A stretch of DNA of 64,000 bases from Balamuthia mandrillaris (lineage: Eukaryota). A program made the translations under genes and the position numbers. The notes beneath the pieces were generated by a model. The model saw nothing but the letters and a program-made list of their open reading frames with translations. It was not told the DNA's origin and did not search any database. The DNA is taken from NCBI GenBank assembly GCA_031835245.2, contig JAVKOQ020000026.1:62001-126000 (forward strand). The letters are read 5' to 3'. Of the stretch, positions 1,894 to 57,849 are shown one piece after another (the first letter of the stretch is position 1; every line of letters starts with the position of its first letter).

Positions 1894-3382
1894 CTCTGTC
1901 CGTCTCTCTCCTTTCTCTTTCTCATTGTTTTTGTATAAAAGCGAAAAGTACGGTTAGAGGACATCACCGAGATTAGAAAAGTGCACGGCGGCGTTCGTGG
2001 CGGAGCTACCGGTTGGTATGGTATTAGCATTTTTGTGAAGAAGCCCCAACCTTCCGGCCCACAAGAGGAGAAGGTTTGTTTTTGCCGCTGTACTTATCCT
2101 TCCTTCTTCCTTCTTGAGGTTATGTGCTTTGGGTCCTTGCGTTCTGACCGTTTCTTGTCTCATGGGTGCAGCTTACCTTCTGGTCGTTCAAGATTCCTAG
2201 AGACAGAGTCTATGATCTTCTTATGCTTCACTGGCAAAAGAAAATGAAAGAGCTAAACAGAGAGGGCCATACCCATCACCTTCATCACGACCACCACCAT
2301 GACGACTACGAAGAGGACCAAGAAATGGAGGATGAACAAGAGGGTGAAGAGGCCGAAGATGCAGACTACGAAGGCGACCAAGACGATGATGAAGATGATG
2401 AAGAAGGAGAAGAATCCACGCCTGGAAGCGCAAGCGATGCAGAGGCTATTGACATTGAAGACGTTCTCGACATGGAACCTGCTGAGTTAGCCTACCGACA
2501 CAACAATAACGAAGGAGATGGAGAAGAGTTGGAAGAGGAAGGAGAGGGAGAGGGAGCGGGAACAGCTCTCGAAATGGACGAAGACGAATTTTTAGACTTT
2601 CTGACGGGCACCACCAGGCTCTATACTCACCTCAAAAAAGGAGCGCAGCTGATGTACGCTCTCTCCGCTGCGGATGAGTGTTGGAGCGACCTCGAAGACG
2701 AGATACAAGCTTCCTCGAGCATGGACCCAACGGAAATGTTGGAAAGCAGTCAACATACTCAACCTTATAATCCTCAGAAGCAACAAGACCACAACAACTC
2801 GAACAAACGGTTTTCAGATTACTCTATTCCGACCATTCGGGAGGAGGTATTATCAGAGCCAGAGGCGGAGACAACTTCTGCCTCATTGACATTGACACCA
2901 ACGCAATCTGTCACTCGCCCTCGCAGTCGCAGCAGAGTTGCTCCCTGGAAGAAGCGGACCTCAGGTGACAAAGTTCCAACTTCCTCCTCAGCGACGACGC
3001 TTTCCTTGTTTTCTGGCTCGGGCAAGCATCACTCCTATTTGTCGGACTCTGGAGAACAACGAAACGGAGCCTCTTCCATGAAGCTCAAGTCCACGAAGAA
3101 TGACAAGCAGCAGAACGGTAACGACTCACTTGGTGTGCTCAAGCTGACTGTATTGGAAGGAAGAAAGTTTCCGAAGAACCTCAAAGGTATAGACATCTTT
3201 TGGACGTTGTTAACCTTTTCTTGTGCTTACCATTGCTTCCTGTGATGTTTGTCCTATTAGGTCCCGTAAGTCCATTCGTGGTGGTTGAGTTTGGCGATCT
3301 TCGCAAAGAGACCAAGCCTGTGCGGCGTAACCGTACGCCGAAATGGAACAAAACATTACACATGTACGCTTTTCATCTAGAT

Positions 3383-29991: not shown

Positions 29992-32900
29992 ATGGAGAAA
30001 GAGAAAGAGACCAGCAAGAAAAAAAAGTCAGGAGGAGGAAACCCGAAACCAATGCTCAGCAGAAGCAGAAGCTTGCAAAGCATGAAAGGGGCCTACCTCT
30101 TGGCCAAAAAATCTGCCGCTCCCAACAACAATGGTAATGCAACCACCTCAGCGCCGCATACATCAGCAACCACAACCCCAATCTCACCCGCGCCTGCCGT
30201 CGCCACTCCCACAACAGAAGCGCGCGGCAAGAAGAAACGCTCTGCCACCACCAAGGAGAAAAAGAAAGTGCAGAAAAAGAAAGACAAAGACAAGGACAAG
30301 GACAGCGTCCATCAAAACGTTGATGCTACTGCAACCACAGAACCACCTGAACTAAAGACTTCTTCCCCAACTAGCCCCCGAAGAAAGAAAGGCTTTGGAA
30401 GATCCCCAGATATCCAGGCAAACAACGCACTCCCGAGGGCTCACTCCCTTCAAGTTTTCAGCGGCAGCATTTCCGCACCAGAAGATGATGACGATCCTCT
30501 TCTTCAACCGAGACACTCAACCTCAGGAGGAGGCAGTCTCAAAAGCAAAGTGCCGGTGAGTCGCCCCTCGGTGGTTCCCTCTTTGACGGATTTGTCTCCC
30601 AGCAAATCCGCTTCACCAAGAACACCATCAGCAACGGCGCTGGTGAGCCCTCGCAACAGCCCTCGCCATCAACAATATTTGCCCCCTCCTCCTCAGAAAC
30701 CTCCTCCTCTAGAACTCCCTGCTTTCTCTGCCGCCAATTCAGGACCTTCACTTTCCCAAACGAAGCAACAAACGTCCCCAACGACCCCACCAACCGTTGT
30801 ACCAGGCTCTCCGACTTCGTCTCCTCGTTGTTCTCCTCGTTCTCCTCCATCTTCTGCGTTGGGGTCTTCATCTACCTCCTCTCCCCGCTCTCCTCACTCT
30901 CGTTCTGCTCATGCGAGTGACTCTCACATAAAACGAGTACCTCCTTCTCCTAAATCACGAAGCGACGAGTCGGTTCGTGGGGGAGCCGCGACTACAACCA
31001 CTAGTACTGACAACAACGATCAAGAAGTTGACTTGGTTTTCTTGCCTAGCATCTCGGCGCAAGCATTGCCCCCTCCATTGAGCCTGGCAAGCCTGGACAT
31101 ACTTCCTCCACCGTCAAGTGTTCCTCCACCATCCTCTGCTTCTCATTTATCAACGCAAGGGGGAACTGGTGGAGGAACAGGGTCACCCAGGTCGTCTTCA
31201 CCATCGTTATCTACTCCGTTATCATCTGTTTCTTCTTCTATTCCTCCATCGTCGCCGATTTCGTTTTCTCCATCAAGTGTTGCGACAAAGTCGCCAAGAG
31301 AAAGAGGAGTTTCTCTTCCGCCGGTTCTTATTCGAAACAATTCTTCAGATGTTTACCATTCTCCCCCACTTTCGCATTCCCTCCCTCACTCGTCCTCCTC
31401 TTCATCCTTGACCCCTTCCTCTTCCATTCCACCATCTTCTCCTTCCAAACGAGACCGAAAAGAAAAGAGAGAGAAGAAAGAACACCGAAAGAAGGATCGT
31501 AGCCATAGCTTAAATGTGACGTCTTTGTCTTCATCTTCGAGTTCTGGTGAAAGATCTTCTAAAAGAAAAGGAAGTGGTTCCTCTGCTTCGCCAACTGGCT
31601 CTCCTTCTCCGTTGGTATGCAGCAGGACATTGCGGAGAGGCTCCAAATCAGAAATCCACAAAGAGGCACTACCTTCTTCGTTGCTGTCCTCCTCCCCTCC
31701 GTCCTTTCCTTCTTCTCTCTCCTGTTCTGCGCTTTCTTCCTCGTCATGTGCTCCTTCGGCTTCTTCTCTTTCTTCCTCGACTAACTCCTCACCTCCGCAC
31801 ACTCCAACTCTCTCCAACTCTTCTTCTGAATCAACAACTGTTGCCGAGGAAAGAACGATAACCGAAGAAGAACATTCAGAACAAGAGGCATCATCCAAAC
31901 TGTCTTCATCCACTTCATCGCTCCCTTCTTTGTCGCCGTCTTCTTCTCCTCCAACTTCATCCTTGTCAACCTCTGGCTCTTCCATTTCAACCACAGCAGC
32001 TGCCAGCACTGCCAACATTCCCGACAAGCGCGAGCGAACTCGAAAGGAGGCCATCAACGAGATCGTCAACACGGAGCGAGACTACGTGCGAGACATGCAG
32101 CTCGTCATTCAGGTCTTTCTCGCTCCGCTCAAGGAAAAGCAGCTGATGGAGCCCCAGAAGCTATCCACCATTTTCAGCAACGTGGAGCTGCTGGTCGGCG
32201 TCAACGAGGAGATGCTCAAGAGCTTCGACAGAACAGCGCACAAGGACCAGGAGGAAATGATCGGAGATACTTTTCTTTCTGTGGTGGGTTGTCTCTTTTC
32301 TTTTTTGTTCATTATGTAGGTTTAACGTACCCTGTTTTCGATGGATGTTGCGGCAGATGCATTACTTCAAAATGTACACGGTGTATTGCTCCAACCAACC
32401 ATTGGCGCTGAAGACACTTGCGGAGATGAAGCAAACCAATCGCCCTTTTGTACAATTTTTGCAGGTTTGTTCTATACTTCTCCTATGTATCGTTTAGTCG
32501 CTACAGTTGCCTCAAAACCTGTCCGTTTGTATCTTTCTTTTTCATGACAGGAATGCATCGACAATCCAGCATGCAGAGGTCTCGACCTCTTCAGTTATCT
32601 CATCAAACCTGTCCAGCGCATATGTAAATATCCACTTCTATTGAGGGTAAGGCTTTCTCTCTCACCTTCAAAGCTTAGTATTCATAATATAAACTCTCCT
32701 TTGTTTTGTGGCAGACCTTGTTGGAGGTCACGCAGGAAACCCATAAGGACTACCGCAACCTGAAAAAGGCGGAGGAGGACATGGAGAAGCTGGTGCAATA
32801 CGTCAACGAAGGCAACCGTGAGGCTGAGAATCGCCAAAAGATTCTTGAACTCCAAAACTCTATTGATGGAGGAGACGTTAGTATATCACCCCTTGTGCCA

Positions 32901-34302
32901 GCTTCATTCTTAATGCTGATGCGGAAAAAAAAAAAACAGACTCTAGGCTTGGTTCAACCAACAAGAAGATATTTAATGGAAGAATCGTTAGACGTGTGCA
33001 AGAACGGAAAGCGAAGCAAGAGCAAGGATCTGCAGAGAAGATGTGTTCTTTTTAACGACATGCTTTTGCTTCTTAAGGTCAGAAAGGAAGGCTATATAGC
33101 TCCTGTGCAGATCGACCTCAGCAATGAACACATCAAACTGTTTGATGTTGGAGATACTGAAAGTATGTTTCTGCGTTCTTCTTCTTTCTTTATGCGTCTG
33201 ACAATGATTGGTCTTTGAACAGAGATCAAAAATGCGTTTGACTTGAAGGACGTAAAGAGAAAAAAGATGTTTACTTTCTGCTTCCCGTCTGCGCAGATGA
33301 AGAGCCAATGGCTGAAAGCAATTAAGTCCATCATTAATACTCACCAGATGAAACGTTTCATGCGTACGTTTATATGCTTGTTGCCTTTGTCTCAACGCCA
33401 CCTCTAACCACTTGAAAACAGAGGCTGAAGAACAGGCACAGCACGAAAAGGTAGAACGAGAACAATTTCAATTGTTACAACAACAGCACAATTCAGTTAC
33501 ATTCGGGGCAGCCGAAAGTAACGCAGCAAGAGCCGTCGGCTTTGCAGTATCCGACCTCAAAGATGCGAACAGCGTTCTCAAACAATCCTCCTCTTCTTCA
33601 GCTTTATCCTCATCGGCCATATCATCACAACCAGAGAACAGTTCCTCATCTGTGGAAATCCCCGATACCAGCAACAAGATTCCAGCTGCGGTGACGGTCA
33701 ATAAAAGAGCCAAGTTCCAACGCAGTATGAGTTTGAATAGCATGCAAAACATGAAAATAGAGAACACGAAGAAAGCTTCGACAACTCCAACTGGAGGAGA
33801 GGAGCAACCACAGCAACCTCCCACACCTTCGTCATCGACAAAAAGAACTCCCCGTGCACAGTATTCCCAAGACGAAATAGCTGCTGCCGCTTCATCCTCT
33901 GGCAAACACAGTTCTGTGAACAACAAACAGACAGGAGAGAAGAAAGCTCGGGTGCTTTCTCCGCGACAAGAATCTTCTCCTTCAATGTTTGCTCCAACGT
34001 CACCGAGAAATAAGAGCACGCCCCTCTCTCCAAGAGAACGTAATAGCTGCAATAGCAAAGAACGTTGCGAAAGACGGGACAGCAAAGAGGAAAGGAAACG
34101 TGCAAACAAAACGAAGGACAGCGCCAGCAAGGTGAAAGAGCAGGACCAAGAGAAGAAGTATGACAAATTAGTAGACGAGGCAGTCGGCGAAGGAGATAAA
34201 CCAGAGGAGGTGGAAGCGAGAGTAGAAGAACCAAGGGAAGAGGAAGGGAAACCTGGGGAAGCATTAACGGACCAAGACCCCATCTTGGTGAATGCTTCTT
34301 AG
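29992..34302 (+). CDS. Rho guanine-nucleotide exchange factor (DH-PH) with S/P-rich extensions; multi-exon
   Basis: EIVNTERDYVRDM, IFSNVE, FKMYTVYCSNQ, LIKPVQRICKYPLLL, VNEGNRE; PH-like VLFNDMLLL and QWLKAI. Confidence 0.9.
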
Positions 34303-34351
34303 TCTTACGATATTTTGTGTTTTTTAACTTGTACCAAAATAAAATTGTATT

Positions 34352-34580
34352 CGTGCATTCGAGTTTATTGACTAAGGCGGCGCCACGATCAAGCCGATCC
34401 ATGGGACAACGAAAATAAAGCAAAATTAGTAAAAGGAAAACAAAAAACAGAGAAACAAAAAATAACCCACCTCCGGCGTGCCTAATCACGGCTTGTCTTA
34501 CGACTCGCTATAAGCAACGGTGCCGGCACCAAAGCAACCTTACCGCCTACCGCCCCCTCACAGAGGAGGAGGAGGAGGTG
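34352..34580 (-). ncRNA. Putative Fanzor omegaRNA: scaffold ~34580-34471, predicted intron 34470-34372, guide from flank 34371-~34352
   Basis: GC-rich hairpin cluster overlapping and following the ORF stop, the position expected for TnpB/Fanzor omegaRNAs; boundaries are inferred. Confidence 0.6.
34372..34430 (+). repeat. Terminal inverted repeat, Fanzor 3' (omegaRNA) side
   Basis: CTAAGGCGGCGCCACGATCAAGCCGATCCATGGGACAACGAAAA..TTAGT aligns with the reverse complement of 36066-36126. Confidence 0.88.
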
Positions 34581-35518
34581 GTAAGTGCTTGCAACGTAAA
34601 AAAGCGGATCAAGATGTTTCGGGCGGCGTTGGCATCTCGATCGGCCTGGTAGCCACACTCGGGTTGAGGGCACCGAAAGGTCTTGTTTCCCCCCAACTGG
34701 TGGTGGACTTGGCCGCACTTGCCGCAGGTTTTGGAGGTGTATTCCTCATCGCAGAGGCAGACCGTACAGGACGGAAATTGCTGGGCCTTGTTGAGGAGCC
34801 TCTGCCTGAAGCGATAGTGGGACCAGGTCAGCATGGCTCTGGCCGTTCGCGAGCCAATGCGGCGGTGGCCTCGCCGCACCATCTGCTGGCTCCTGAACTC
34901 TGGCAGAAGGATGAGGGAGAAGTTCTTGACCAACCAAAACACGAGCTTTTTGTGGAGGTCATCCACCAGGTTGCGGATCCTCTGGCGAAGCCGAGCAGCG
35001 GCCCTTCGGAGACGGCGCCGTTGCCTGTGGTTGCCCTTGGTGCCCTTACTCTGCATGCGATCCAGGCGGTGGCACAGCTTGCCTATCTCGTTGATGTCCG
35101 CTTTGCCCCACTCGGTGACCTCCCCGCAGCCGTTGTAGGTGGTCATGAATGTGCGCACTCCTGGATCCAAGGCGATGATGCCTGCCTCTCTCCTTCGGTG
35201 CTCACGGGCTTGGCTCTCGCCCATGAGCTTCAAAGGCTGAGGCACACAGAGGTAGTAATGGCCCAGTCGAGTGTCCTTCACCAGACGAACGGCATAGAGC
35301 ACCTCCGACGGAACTTTGTAGTTCTTGTCCCTCGCTTTGATTCGCGCCTCCCCGAAGAAGAGTTGGCGGATGGACTTGCTGTGGTTCCACTCCCTGGCTT
35401 GGATGCTGAGAGACTGGCTCTTGTCCTTCCGACCACGGAACTTCATCTTGAATCCAGTCCTGCCCGCCGCCAAGCTGGTTTTCACGCCGTTGAAGAAAAA
35501 GTTCGAGGAAAATTCCAT
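34547..35518 (-). CDS. Fanzor2 (IS607-derived TnpB-like) RNA-guided endonuclease, apparently N-terminally truncated (323 aa from first in-frame ATG; frame open to ~35830)
   Basis: FKMKFRGRK, RuvC-I IIALDPGVRTF, LVDDLHKKLVFWL, ILLPEF, MLTWSHYRFRQRL, rearranged RuvC-II CDEEYTSKTC, zinc finger CGKC..CPQPEC, RuvC-III DRDANAARNI. Confidence 0.92.
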   Translation of the reverse strand: MEFSSNFFFNGVKTSLAAGRTGFKMKFRGRKDKSQSLSIQAREWNHSKSIRQLFFGEARIKARDKNYKVPSEVLYAVRLVKDTRLGHYYLCVPQPLKLMGESQAREHRRREAGIIALDPGVRTFMTTYNGCGEVTEWGKADINEIGKLCHRLDRMQSKGTKGNHRQRRRLRRAAARLRQRIRNLVDDLHKKLVFWLVKNFSLILLPEFRSQQMVRRGHRRIGSRTARAMLTWSHYRFRQRLLNKAQQFPSCTVCLCDEEYTSKTCGKCGQVHHQLGGNKTFRCPQPECGYQADRDANAARNILIRFFTLQALTTSSSSSVRGR

Positions 35519-36030
35519 TATTTCCCGCCAATGAGCATGTTTCCAGCAGCGTTGTGGAAGAGGCGCACAGAGGTTCGTGATGCTGTTCTTTTTTAAACAA
35601 AAGAAATCATTAGTGAGTGGTTGGTAACAAATTTTTTTTCCATCATCAAAAAATGTAGTGAGCGAGCAGAGAAAAAAGAACGCTACCTTTTCAATCGGAG
35701 CAGTGCCCCTGCCTGCGGCTGAACCGCTTCGGTTTCCACCTCTGCCTCCTTCCGCTGGTTTCCTCCTTGTGTAGTAGAAGCGTAGCAATGAGAAATACGG
35801 TGGTGCGTGGAGCTTCGTGGATGTGTGTGTCTGTGTGTTTACTTTTGAAAAGAAAGAAATGAAAAGAAAAGAAGAGAAGAAAAGAAAACGAGTAGCAGAA
35901 AAGTGTCAAGGCGAATGGCGAGTACCAAAAGTTTATTGGCGGCAGCAGCAGCATGAGCATCCATTCCGTACACCCCACCCCACACCCCAATCCACCACTT
36001 TGCCTTCAGAGACGTGGGAGAAGGAAGGGT

Positions 36031-36060
36031 TGTTTTGGCGGGAAACATGCTCATTGGCCC
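36031..36060 (-). promoter_or_regulatory. E2F-like site (TTTCCCGCCAA) plus CCAAT box inside the transposon 5' end; related copies at 35521-35544 and 57558-57587
   Basis: TTGGCGGGAAACATGCTCATTGGC matches the E2F consensus TTTSSCGC and CCAAT. Confidence 0.45.
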
Positions 36061-36065
36061 AAAAG

Positions 36066-36126
36066 ACTAATGTCGTGATTTCTTTTTTCGTTGTCCTTAG
36101 ATCTTATGATCTTTGCGCCGCCTTAG
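36066..36126 (-). repeat. Terminal inverted repeat, Fanzor 5' side
   Basis: Reverse complement reads CTAAGGCGGCGCAAAGATCATAAGATCTAAGGACAACGAAAA..TTAGT. Confidence 0.88.
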
Positions 36127-36470
36127 TTTATTGACCGTGTTTACTTCTCCCTATTCTCTATCACCCTTTCGTTCTTCTTCCCTTTCTGCTGCTTCACTAC
36201 TCTCCTGATGTACTCGTTTGTCGACAGTGGCTACTTCTGTATTCGCTGAAGTGGGACAAGTGACCACTGGGCAAAGCTCTTCGTTCTCCCTGTCGCCTTT
36301 CCTTTCTCTTTCAGTTAATCTGCTCTGTGCCCTCCTCCCTTTTGTTGCTCCTCCGCCTCTCTCTTTCTCTTCTCTTTGTCGTGTGATTGTTGCAACCGGA
36401 AACAAACGAAACGATATTGGTTATCATGTGTTTTCTTATGTTCAAAAGTGTATACAAGGGTAAAACAAAC

Positions 36471-37604
<1,134 letters not shown>

Positions 37605-56129: not shown

Positions 56130-56659
56130 TGCGCGTGTTACCGCCTAAAGTCTCCTCTGTTGCTGTTCTTTCTTGCCCTCTCTTTTGTGGGTGCACAGCC
56201 TGTGGCTCCACCAGCCTGCACCGATAGAGTATGATCGGGTGCCAGTTATTCCTTTTGTTGGATGTATGGATCGATCTCTGTAACCGTAAGAGCTCTGGGC
56301 AAGCTTGAGCCCCCCCCCCCATGGGGAAGCCATGGCCCTCCCTGATGCTGTGTCCACCAAGACATTGCTGGTAGCGGTGGTAGTAATGTCGGAAGTAGGG
56401 AAAACTTCCCTTCTGCTTTGTTGGTTTTGTCCTCTCTTTCTCTCTGTTTGCTGAGTGGTTCAGATGAGAGTTCACCGCCTGCAACAGAGCTGCCGGGGCG
56501 TTTTCCGCTCTTCTTTTCCGAGTTGCAGTGGAAGTAGCGGAAGCAGTGGTGCGCCCCTCTTCCTTGTGGGGCTCGACCGAGGTGGATGGCCAAACCCCCA
56601 AGAGGTAGCAAACTGTTTTCCGCACTGTGGGTAACATTCCATTTGGCCAGCTTCCAGTA

Positions 56660-57597
56660 GCGATCATCACGAAATGTGATGAGTGGAGAAACAAAGAACT
56701 CAACCTTTGCAATCGGAGCAGTGCTCCTGCCTGCGGCTGAACCGTAGAAGAGAAGAGAAGAGAAGAGAACGATGAAGAGAAGAGAAGAGAAGAGAAGAGA
56801 AGAGAAGAGAAGAGAAGAGAAGAGAAGAGAAGAGAAGAGAAGAGAAAGAGAAGAGAAGAGAAGAGAAGAGAACGATGAAGAGAAGAGAAGAGAAGAGAAG
56901 AGAAGAGAACGATGAAGAGAAGAGAAGAGAAGAGAACGATGAAGAGAACGATGAAGAGAAGAGAAGAGAAGAGAAGAGAAGAGAACGATGAAGAGAACGA
57001 TGAAGAGAACGATGAAGAGAAGAGAAGAGAAGAGAAGAGAAGAGAAGAGAACGATGAAGAGAACGATGAAGAGAACGATGAAGAAAGAGAAGAGAAGAGA
57101 AGAGAAGAGAAGAGAACGACGAAGAGAAGAGAGAAGGACGAAGAGAAGAGAAGAGAAGAGAACGACGAAGAGAAGAGAACGACGAAGAGAAGAGAAGAGA
57201 ACGACGAAGAGAACGACGAAGAGAAGAGAAGAGAAGAGAAGAGAAGAGAAGAGAAGAGAAGAGAAGAGAAGAGAAGAGAAGAGAAGAGAAGAGAAGAGAA
57301 GAGAAGAGAACGATGAAGAGAAGAGAACGATGAAGAGAAGAGAAGAGAACGATGAAGAGAACGATGAAGAGAACGATGAAGAAAAGAAAAGAAAAGAAAA
57401 GAAAAGAAAAGAAAAGAAAAGAAAAGAAAAGAAAAGAAAAGAAAAGAAAAGGAGTAGCAGAAAAGTGTCAAGGCGGTGGAGGAGCAACAAAAGCTTATTC
57501 GCTGCACTGAGAATCCATTCCATTCACTCCACCCGCCGCTTTGGGAGAATGAAGGGCTGTTTTGGCGGGAAACATGCTCATTGGCCCAAAAGACCTT
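56660..57597 (-). mobile_element. Degenerate second copy of the 5' part of the Fanzor transposon, interrupted by an expanded microsatellite
   Basis: 57558-57594 = 36031-36067 (37/37), 57452-57475 = 35890-35913 (24/24), 56710-56744 vs 35692-35726 (34/35); collinear and in the same orientation. Confidence 0.8.
56746..57450. repeat. (AGAAG)n / (GAGAACGATGAA)n / (GAAAA)n compound microsatellite
   Basis: Directly visible, ~700 bp. Confidence 0.92.
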
Positions 57598-57849
57598 GTC
57601 GTTTTCTCCGCCGAATAGGAACTGCCGAAGAGACAAGAAAGAAGTCATAAAACCACCGGCAGAGAAGAAAGAGAAGGAGGAGGAGGAAGAAGAAGAAGAG
57701 CAAGCAAGGGAGGTGGTGAGGAGGCATTGGGACAAGGAAAGAAGGGTGTGGTGGGAGCTGTTGTGTTGCAGCCAGAGCTGGTTTCATTCTTTTCTATCTT
57801 TTTTTCCTCAACACAACAACAACGAATAAAGAAAAGAGGAAAGCAACAC

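Follow-up and report, generated by a model that had tools for sequence, protein, structure and literature searches.

The 99 nt between the 3' RNA region of a Fanzor2 gene and the end of the transposable element that carries it in Balamuthia mandrillaris may be a spliceosomal intron, with the last AG of the transposon as predicted acceptor; this reading is tentative and we place it somewhat below even likelihood. The element lies in the 64,000-nucleotide stretch that we analysed as a whole (hereafter the window). A sequence-only reading of this DNA had proposed that the host spliceosome excises the terminal inverted repeat (TIR) from the RNA. The donor side of this proposal gained support, from a break and a depth step of RNA reads at the predicted site and from the host-like sequence of that site, whereas no acceptor read was obtained from any copy. 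The parts of the element to which the text refers are as follows.

34364..34371, minus strand: 3' copy of the target-site duplication (TSD), TCAATAAA, which contains AATAAA and forms the first 8 nt of the guide proposed earlier; an identical 8-mer lies outside both ends.
34372..34434, minus strand: 3' terminal inverted-repeat module, ~63 nt, imperfect, ending ...GCCGCCTTAG; recognized from an inverted 12-mer, the alignment of the two ends and a word depth of 412-780 in sequencing run X8 against 12.5 in the flank.
34547..35497, minus strand: shortened Fanzor2-type (TnpB-like) open reading frame (ORF) with part of the WED domain and with the RuvC and zinc-finger parts intact, stop codon 34547-34549; matches in Pfam, tblastn and PDB.
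35498..35547, minus strand: junction of the internal deletion, with filler; an inverted pair is present, and RNA reads with loose ends at 35498 and 35541 enter full-length sequence.
36064..36126, minus strand: 5' terminal inverted-repeat module; inverted 12-mer, alignment of the ends and RNA loose ends at 36122-36128.
36127..36134, minus strand: 5' copy of the TSD, a direct repeat.

The 12-mer CTAAGGCGGCGC occurs twice in the 64-kb window, in inverted orientation, at 34372 and 36126, and none of 100 shuffles contained two or more matches. The element ends align across ~63 nt (46 of the 83 columns of the alignment of both ends are invariant), and the perfect 8-bp direct repeat stands immediately outside both of them. 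The inverted ends together with the 8-bp duplication define the unit as a TIR element of 1,755 bp (34372-36126), and both TIR and TSD exceed chance expectation. From the 8-bp TSD, a length that is assigned to hAT elements and likewise generated by P elements, we infer that the element is hAT-like and non-autonomous. It sits in a short gap between two convergent genes, an intronless actin gene (36474-37598, minus strand; Pfam Actin, 6.9e-154) with its stop 337 nt from the element and a RhoGEF gene (plus strand, end about 34302) with its stop ~70 nt away. Since the TSD carries AATAAA 337 nt past the actin stop, the insertion may have left two copies of a poly(A) signal. A 1,781-nt contig of X8 matches 34255-34372 and departs from the window sequence precisely at the element boundary, which suggests that the X8 strain lacks the insertion and is consistent with an empty site.

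Other copies and fragments of the family were also seen. In X8, the terminal ~60 nt (34372-34431 and the matching 5' end) reach a word depth of 412-780, compared with about 76 in the Fanzor 3' region and 12.5 in the flank; hence many ORF-less copies (MITE-like or 'ghost'-like) probably share the element ends. Most X8 copies of the terminal module have A in place of C at 34400. A second, degenerate 5' fragment of the same family lies at 56488-57600 (minus strand), with DNA matches of 73-84% to 35642-35726 and 35847-36067. It encodes residues 1-51 of the database protein P0001 (C2H2-like, MASCPQCGKKF...) and is interrupted by ~700 nt of CTCTT/CATCGTT-type microsatellite; neither a nuclease part nor a TIR was found near it. 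In addition, contigs of a soil metatranscriptome (X4) are 98-100% like parts of the element within 34390-35815 (one example has 5 differences over 398 nt, 34865-35262), and in one contig the likeness to the terminal module is confined to 34390-34427, beyond which its sequence is different. The TIR-pattern scan of metagenomes returned 44 loci, none of which (0/44) shares DNA with the element; with a single weak and unrelated TnpB-like tblastn match among them, they were set aside as chance matches.

The only long ORF of the element (34547-35497 and the frame upstream of it, minus strand) encodes a TnpB/Fanzor nuclease. It matched Pfam PF07282 above the cut-off (7.5e-17) and PF01385 just below it (5.3e-7; 30.3 bits, cut-off 30.5). 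The closest of 1,292 database relatives was P0001, a protein of 554 aa named "Transposase [Balamuthia mandrillaris]", at 75% identity; the next relatives (550-590 aa) did not exceed 53%. The best solved relative was PDB 9b0l_P, "TnpB-like protein L79", which we take to be the mimivirus protein ApmFz2, a Fanzor2; it matched over the RuvC/zinc-finger half (E=4.4e-22) and was followed by Cas12f/TnpB chains. The E of the motif C-D-E-x-Y-T-S-K-T-C, just before the zinc finger, was invariant in all 8 aligned sequences (alignment A1), and the canonical LLP-E-F position was variable in the same alignment (E/K/V/A). The available text of PMC13565253 describes such a rearrangement as Fanzor-type, with the catalytic glutamate placed shortly before the zinc finger and no conservation at the canonical position. 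By its sequence, the predicted cargo protein appears to fit Fanzor2, with RuvC-like and zinc-finger (TNB) domains of the OrfB/TnpB type and the rearranged glutamate.

The N-terminal ~270 codons are absent from the window copy, and tblastn aligned residues 273-537 of P0001 at 35497-34667. Some RNA reads, with loose ends (the continuation of a read beyond its match) at 35498 and 35541, enter the missing N-terminal part, and one consensus reads RFIRSDAVDD, as in P0001. Lacking the N-terminal WED/REC parts, the window copy is a deletion derivative, which could act only with protein supplied in trans. At the deletion junction a 21-nt inverted duplicate (35527-35547 versus 36038-36058, 95% complementary) looks like filler DNA from abortive gap repair. 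The protein model of P0001 is broken as well: residues about 440-480 come from a shifted frame of a segment that is intact in the window (34800-35100), and beyond the first CxxC the C-terminal sequence runs off. The protein scan of metagenomes gave no relative of the nuclease. Viral contigs gave no match to a single-protein query or to the TIR and scaffold patterns; a profile search found 67 viral loci with nuclease relatives at 27-46% identity. In these loci the coding part alone aligns to the 3' region of the window, the 3' non-coding regions being not alignable, and their right ends were not definable from paired copies. One of two giant-virus contigs that are otherwise 94-96% identical (L048 and L049) carries 400 extra bases 8 nt past the nuclease stop (about position 3270).

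The candidate intron and its surroundings comprise the following features.

34471..34546, minus strand: 76-nt non-coding stretch from the Fanzor stop to the donor, the presumed 3' part of the RNA scaffold, as judged from the sequence.
34372..34470, minus strand: candidate spliceosomal intron of 99 nt, T-rich tract plus TIR, GT..AG; summed RNA depth about 3-5 against about 20 upstream.
34469..34470, minus strand: GT of the predicted 5' splice site, context GAG/GTGGGT; loose ends at 34471 in X12 (3 reads) and at 34469 in X13 (4 reads), and a depth step.
34372..34373, minus strand: predicted 3' splice site, which would be the last AG of the element; no other AG lies between it and the donor.
34425..34430, minus strand: ACTAAT, the branch point proposed earlier, 54 nt from the AG and within the inverted-repeat module; ATTAGT is conserved in both ends.
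34388..34392, minus strand: TTGAT, an alternative branch-point-like motif with its A 17 nt from the terminal G; a motif match from a yTnAy scan.

Read on the minus strand, the locus is ...GATTAGGCACGCCGGAG/GTGGGTTATTTTTTGTTTCTCTG...TTTTACTAATTTTGC...GGCGCCGCCTTAG/TCAATAAACTCGAATGCACG, where TCAATAAACTCGAATGCACG is the host flank past the element (34371-34352). The features on which the earlier proposal was built were all found where it had placed them, namely ...CACGCCGGAG/GTGGGTT with the GT at 34470-34469, the T-rich tract, ACTAAT at 34430-34425 and an AG-free run until ...GCCGCCTTAG, the G of which is position 34372. The 99 nt consist of 51 T, 21 G, 18 C and 9 A and hold a single AG, the terminal one. 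Nevertheless, the intron-like pattern is by itself weak and within chance, the lack of AG being explained by composition (52% T, 9% A): an AG-free interior arose in 15.5% of 20,000 composition-preserving shuffles of the segment, 309 of the 6,392 GT sites of the window (4.8%) are followed by at least 99 nt without AG, and the window holds 109 AG-free gaps of at least 95 nt. TTGAT lies nearer to the AG than ACTAAT and softens the caveat on a long branch-to-AG distance that the sequence-only reading had raised. The position of ACTAAT in a block common to both inverted ends gives another reason for its conservation. The description of the region before the donor as structured was not borne out, as the 76 nt fold no better than shuffles (z = +0.43); the stretch 34471-34600, which spans the stop codon, was the only region tested that reached z = -2.6. 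AG depletion, ACTAAT and RNA folding thus provide no independent support for an intron. The search of 34200-36300 against Rfam gave no match at E <= 1, group I introns included, and the locus is distinct from an IStron, as had been claimed.

Introns of the host served as a yardstick. The RhoGEF intron with the donor GTGGGTT at 32284, to which the sequence-only reading had pointed, is real: the translations of four exons match consecutive parts of the Pfam RhoGEF profile (positions 1-80, 83-117, 119-149 and 151-180). The six host introns in the window are 58-86 nt long with 27-47% T, and each of them has a G at +5 and CAG as its last three bases. The candidate donor GAG/GTGGGT is host-like, sharing the G at +5 with 6/6 host donors, and GTGGGT is the donor used at 32284. 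The candidate acceptor is TAG after a GC-rich, purine-containing run, compared with CAG in 6/6 host introns. With 99 nt and 52% T the segment lies outside the range of the six; the mean intron length of the species is 113 nt according to the available text of bioRxiv 10.1101/2025.02.25.640156.

The guide of Fanzor and TnpB nucleases has to be copied from DNA that lies just outside the transposon. To our knowledge, the only described route for an element with a TIR-type end is that TIR and TSD are absorbed into the RNA scaffold. The splicing proposal presupposes a conflict between a flank-derived guide and a TIR at the element end; published Fanzor RNAs contradict this premise, as far as the available text of PMC10711439 and PMC10530073 goes. 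TIRs and TSDs were predicted within the scaffold in Fanzor1 and in TIR-borne Fanzor2, with RNA extending ~15 nt past the TSD (PMC10711439), the Fanzor RNA overlaps the TIR (PMC10530073), and the 3' TSD is within the scaffold of solved structures (PMC13565253, likewise in its available part). Such scaffolds absorb TIR and TSD and splicing is therefore not required by anything known. The sequence-only reading knew of no described case, and full-text literature searches likewise found no report of spliceosomal splicing of a Fanzor/TnpB guide RNA. The published architecture, with RNA ~15 nt past the TSD (PMC10711439) and overlap with the TIR (PMC10530073), also speaks for an alternative without any splicing, which is possible with a likelihood well short of even. 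Here the T-rich tract, the TIR and the TSD would all belong to the scaffold, the guide would start past the TSD (CTCGAATGCACG...), and the break of reads at 34471 would be a module boundary at the DNA level, with expressed copies that share the Fanzor cassette up to ...GGAG and then differ, being for example IS607-type or rearranged. Position 34471, the boundary between GC-rich and T-rich sequence, would be a natural joint for modules. Against a scaffold of this kind stands the folding of the unspliced 175-nt 3' region, which is no better than that of shuffles (z = +0.68), and in our judgement an unstructured U-tract of ~60 nt is unusual for a scaffold. A 13-bp pairing of GCCGUGAUUAGGC with the TIR, present in the minimum free energy fold, was rejected as not above shuffles (p = 0.16-0.32), so that the pairing between TIR and scaffold is not significant.

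RNA evidence came from the raw reads of three RNA-seq runs (X12-X14) of a related strain, all from one study and apparently unstranded, of which 3-5% each was sampled. The runs were chosen by their species label; no sequencing run contained this exact locus, the best share of words being 0.48. They express sister copies of the element at 95-99% identity. Reads of the donor region were compared at 88% likeness and depth was summed over the three runs. Summed depth was 21.7 at 34490-34505, 19.8 at 34474-34489 and 7.4 in the donor bin; past the donor it was 2.8 at 34442-34457, 3-5 over the TIR module and 0.4 at the element end. This is a drop of about 5-7-fold at the predicted donor, and the step was present in 3/3 runs. 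Depth in X8 does not fall across the donor (75.9, 87 and 111, then 412-780 over the terminal 60 nt, with 12.5 in the host flank); from its even flank depth and high repeat depth X8 is probably DNA, the library type being not on record. Known DNA variation in the tract starts at 34433-34438, not at 34471, and does not explain the step. Furthermore, RNA covers the 5' terminal module well (about 3-10 deep in each run; 10 and 14 reads cross the boundary), in contrast to the near-identical 3' terminal module, which is depleted. Loose ends at 36122-36128 continue into varied flanks. Elsewhere in the element, at 35570-35657, 86 nt are missing from 14 RNA reads (8, 2 and 4 in the three runs), with GT..AG on the plus strand, antisense to the Fanzor gene; the skip reflects either an intron of an antisense transcript or a deletion of 86 bp in some of the copies.

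A sharp drop at 34471 would also be expected if the RNA simply ended or was processed there, by cleavage and polyadenylation or by nuclease trimming, with the junction reads as chimeras. Poly(A) sites have a GU/U-rich downstream element, and the GU/U-rich tract directly downstream of 34471 resembles one. We regard this explanation as very improbable, as the loose ends are neither poly(A) nor poly(T), no pile-up of molecule ends was seen in the read comparison of the donor region, and the 40 nt upstream of 34471 hold no AATAAA, which makes polyadenylation there unlikely.

The ends of the individual reads lie at or close to the predicted donor. In X12, the match of three reads ends exactly at 34471; their loose part, with a median length of 99 nt, includes AGs and is no poly(A) run, and its agreement of 0.81 suggests more than one partner. 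In X13, four reads end at 34469, 2 nt past the predicted donor. Five mismatches at 34484-34511 are shared by 4-5 X13 reads, probably the same reads as those ending at 34469; if so, these derive from a copy that has diverged, their continuation starts GTTTGT and holds no AG, and they may represent unspliced RNA. Two RNA partner sequences had no match within the 64-kb window and were not placeable beside any TIR end. No read from any copy places the RNA partner after the TIR-terminal AG, and exact breaks at the donor amount to only 3 reads. The joint 34471 to 34371 was absent from the sampled reads; the sampled strains appear to lack the insertion, so that GGAG/TCAATAAA is not observable in them.

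These partners bear on a further explanation, which we consider unlikely, in which the donor is real, its acceptors are any that occur in the downstream host flank, or the terminal AG only sometimes, and splicing is a read-through by-product or Introner-like event with no guide role. It draws on an X12 partner in which AAAATGG precedes GC-richer sequence, resembling the beginning of a host gene, on transcripts that cross the 5' boundary from host flanks (at least 24 reads) and on the terminal module being far commoner than the Fanzor part (word depth 412-780 versus about 76). Elements that carry splice sites are known in the form of Introners (available text of PMC9860276). On the other hand, a donor retained across copies needs a dependable acceptor, and from any branch point within the element the next AG downstream is the terminal one. 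For the intron as originally described, two variant T-rich tracts (pieces of 20 and 30 letters in X8 contigs) have no AG downstream of the junction, and ACTAAT, in the matched stretch, follows in both; one of the two pieces reaches the junction and keeps AG/GT. Against it, one X8 variant reads AG/GTCTCT, a poor donor.

The alternative without splicing gains from other features of these data. The family is rearrangement-prone, as seen in the filler deletion at 35498-35547 and in an X8 contig without 34432-34598, and the X13 reads seemingly come from a diverged copy that is unseen among the X8 contigs. The strains also differ. Window, X8 and RNA strain differ at the few host positions that were covered, and strains of the species are reported to be far apart in the available text of bioRxiv 10.1101/2025.02.25.640156. 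Strain differences and the compositional boundary at 34471 keep a DNA-level module boundary in the RNA strain a live alternative. However, the sole X8 contig over 34474-34505 (34438-34536) crosses the donor unbroken, which argues against a branch point in the DNA there in the X8 strain, and the break coincides with a strong host-type donor that had been predicted beforehand. A break 0-2 nt from a site predicted in advance, a step in three runs and a flat DNA depth together substantially raise what was a low prior for splicing. Hence, we consider the chances about evenly balanced that the GT at 34470-34469 is used as a donor. That the intron runs from this donor to the terminal AG, as originally described, is favoured by first-AG selection and is a possibility that falls short of even.

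If the locus works as an intron, transcripts of family members made by Pol II would traverse the nuclease ORF and the 76-nt region after its stop, and the spliceosome would use the donor GAG/GTGGGT together with a branch point within the inverted-repeat module, either ACTAAT or TTGAT. The terminal TTAG would be taken as acceptor by first-AG selection, the T-rich tract and TIR would be removed, and ...CACGCCGGAG would be joined to TSD and host flank. The product might either be loaded by a full-length Fanzor2 in trans, or splicing would merely strip the TIR from a 3' UTR. It is quite unlikely that removal of tract and TIR serves to fuse an IS607-derived scaffold ...CACGCCGGAG to TSD and flank as the guide. 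In connection with this spliced model, the CGG before the 5' TSD had been considered as a fit to a G-rich Fanzor2 TAM; the idea was dropped (n=2, no pattern), the second readable copy flank (X14, loose end 36128) having CA at the position where the window copy has CGG.

A guide RNA matured by the spliceosome, if true, would be a second and eukaryote-specific solution to the problem of the TIR-type end and would link RNA-guided nucleases to pre-mRNA splicing. A spliceosomal intron would then let a nuclease ride a TIR-type cut-and-paste transposon, the mirror image of bacterial IStrons, whose guide RNA is destroyed by splicing. The transfer of a scaffold of the IS607 lineage (Fanzor2) to unrelated transposons, with no need for its 3' end to evolve anew, would also find an explanation, and guide cassettes that contain an intron would suggest themselves for use with Pol II. 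The most modest reading, a 3'-UTR intron with the last AG of the transposon as its acceptor, would already be new for the Fanzor family. If the break at 34471 is instead a boundary at the DNA level, the locus is an ordinary deleted or decayed Fanzor2 element.

Among known systems, mimivirus L79/Fanzor2 (PDB 9b0l) is the best solved relative and shares the rearranged RuvC glutamate with our element. Unlike our element, L79 is a viral protein, and it presumably stems from an IS607-type element without TIRs. The closest systems are the TIR-borne Fanzors (Fanzor2* of Chloropicon and molluscs and the SfAV Fanzor1; PMC10711439) and the SpuFz1 loci with a single ORF flanked by inverted repeats and their 'ghost' loci (PMC10432273), as described in the available parts of these papers. 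As in TIR-borne Fanzors, the element is a short cut-and-paste transposon with TIRs and a TSD that has a TnpB-derived nuclease gene as its sole ORF, and a non-coding region extends from the stop to the right end. Judged from X8 depth, ORF-less copies that share the ends probably outnumber those with the ORF, as in the SpuFz1 loci, for which 42 Fz and 134 ghost loci are given (PMC10432273, available text). The available text of PMC10711439 and PMC10432273 reads TIR and TSD as scaffold and does not describe splicing, whereas in our element a T-rich, intron-like tract lies between the GC-rich region and the TIR, and RNA reads break at its GT. Like Introners (PMC9860276, available text), the element has TIRs, a TSD and many short copies, and a 3' splice site, perhaps also a branch point, would come from its terminal sequence. 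Introners are, according to the same text, removed whole from host genes, and the TSD often provides one of their splice sites; in our element both proposed sites fall within one end, and 99 nt alone would be removed while the cargo gene stays in the RNA. The likeness to IStrons, IS607 or IS605 elements with a group I intron (PMC10690162, available text), is that a nuclease of the TnpB family, a guide RNA and an intron share one end and the same RNA. IStrons are bacterial and self-splicing, and their splicing severs the scaffold from the guide and competes with guide RNA formation (PMC10690162, available text), whereas splicing of the element described here would be spliceosomal and would join the scaffold to the flank.
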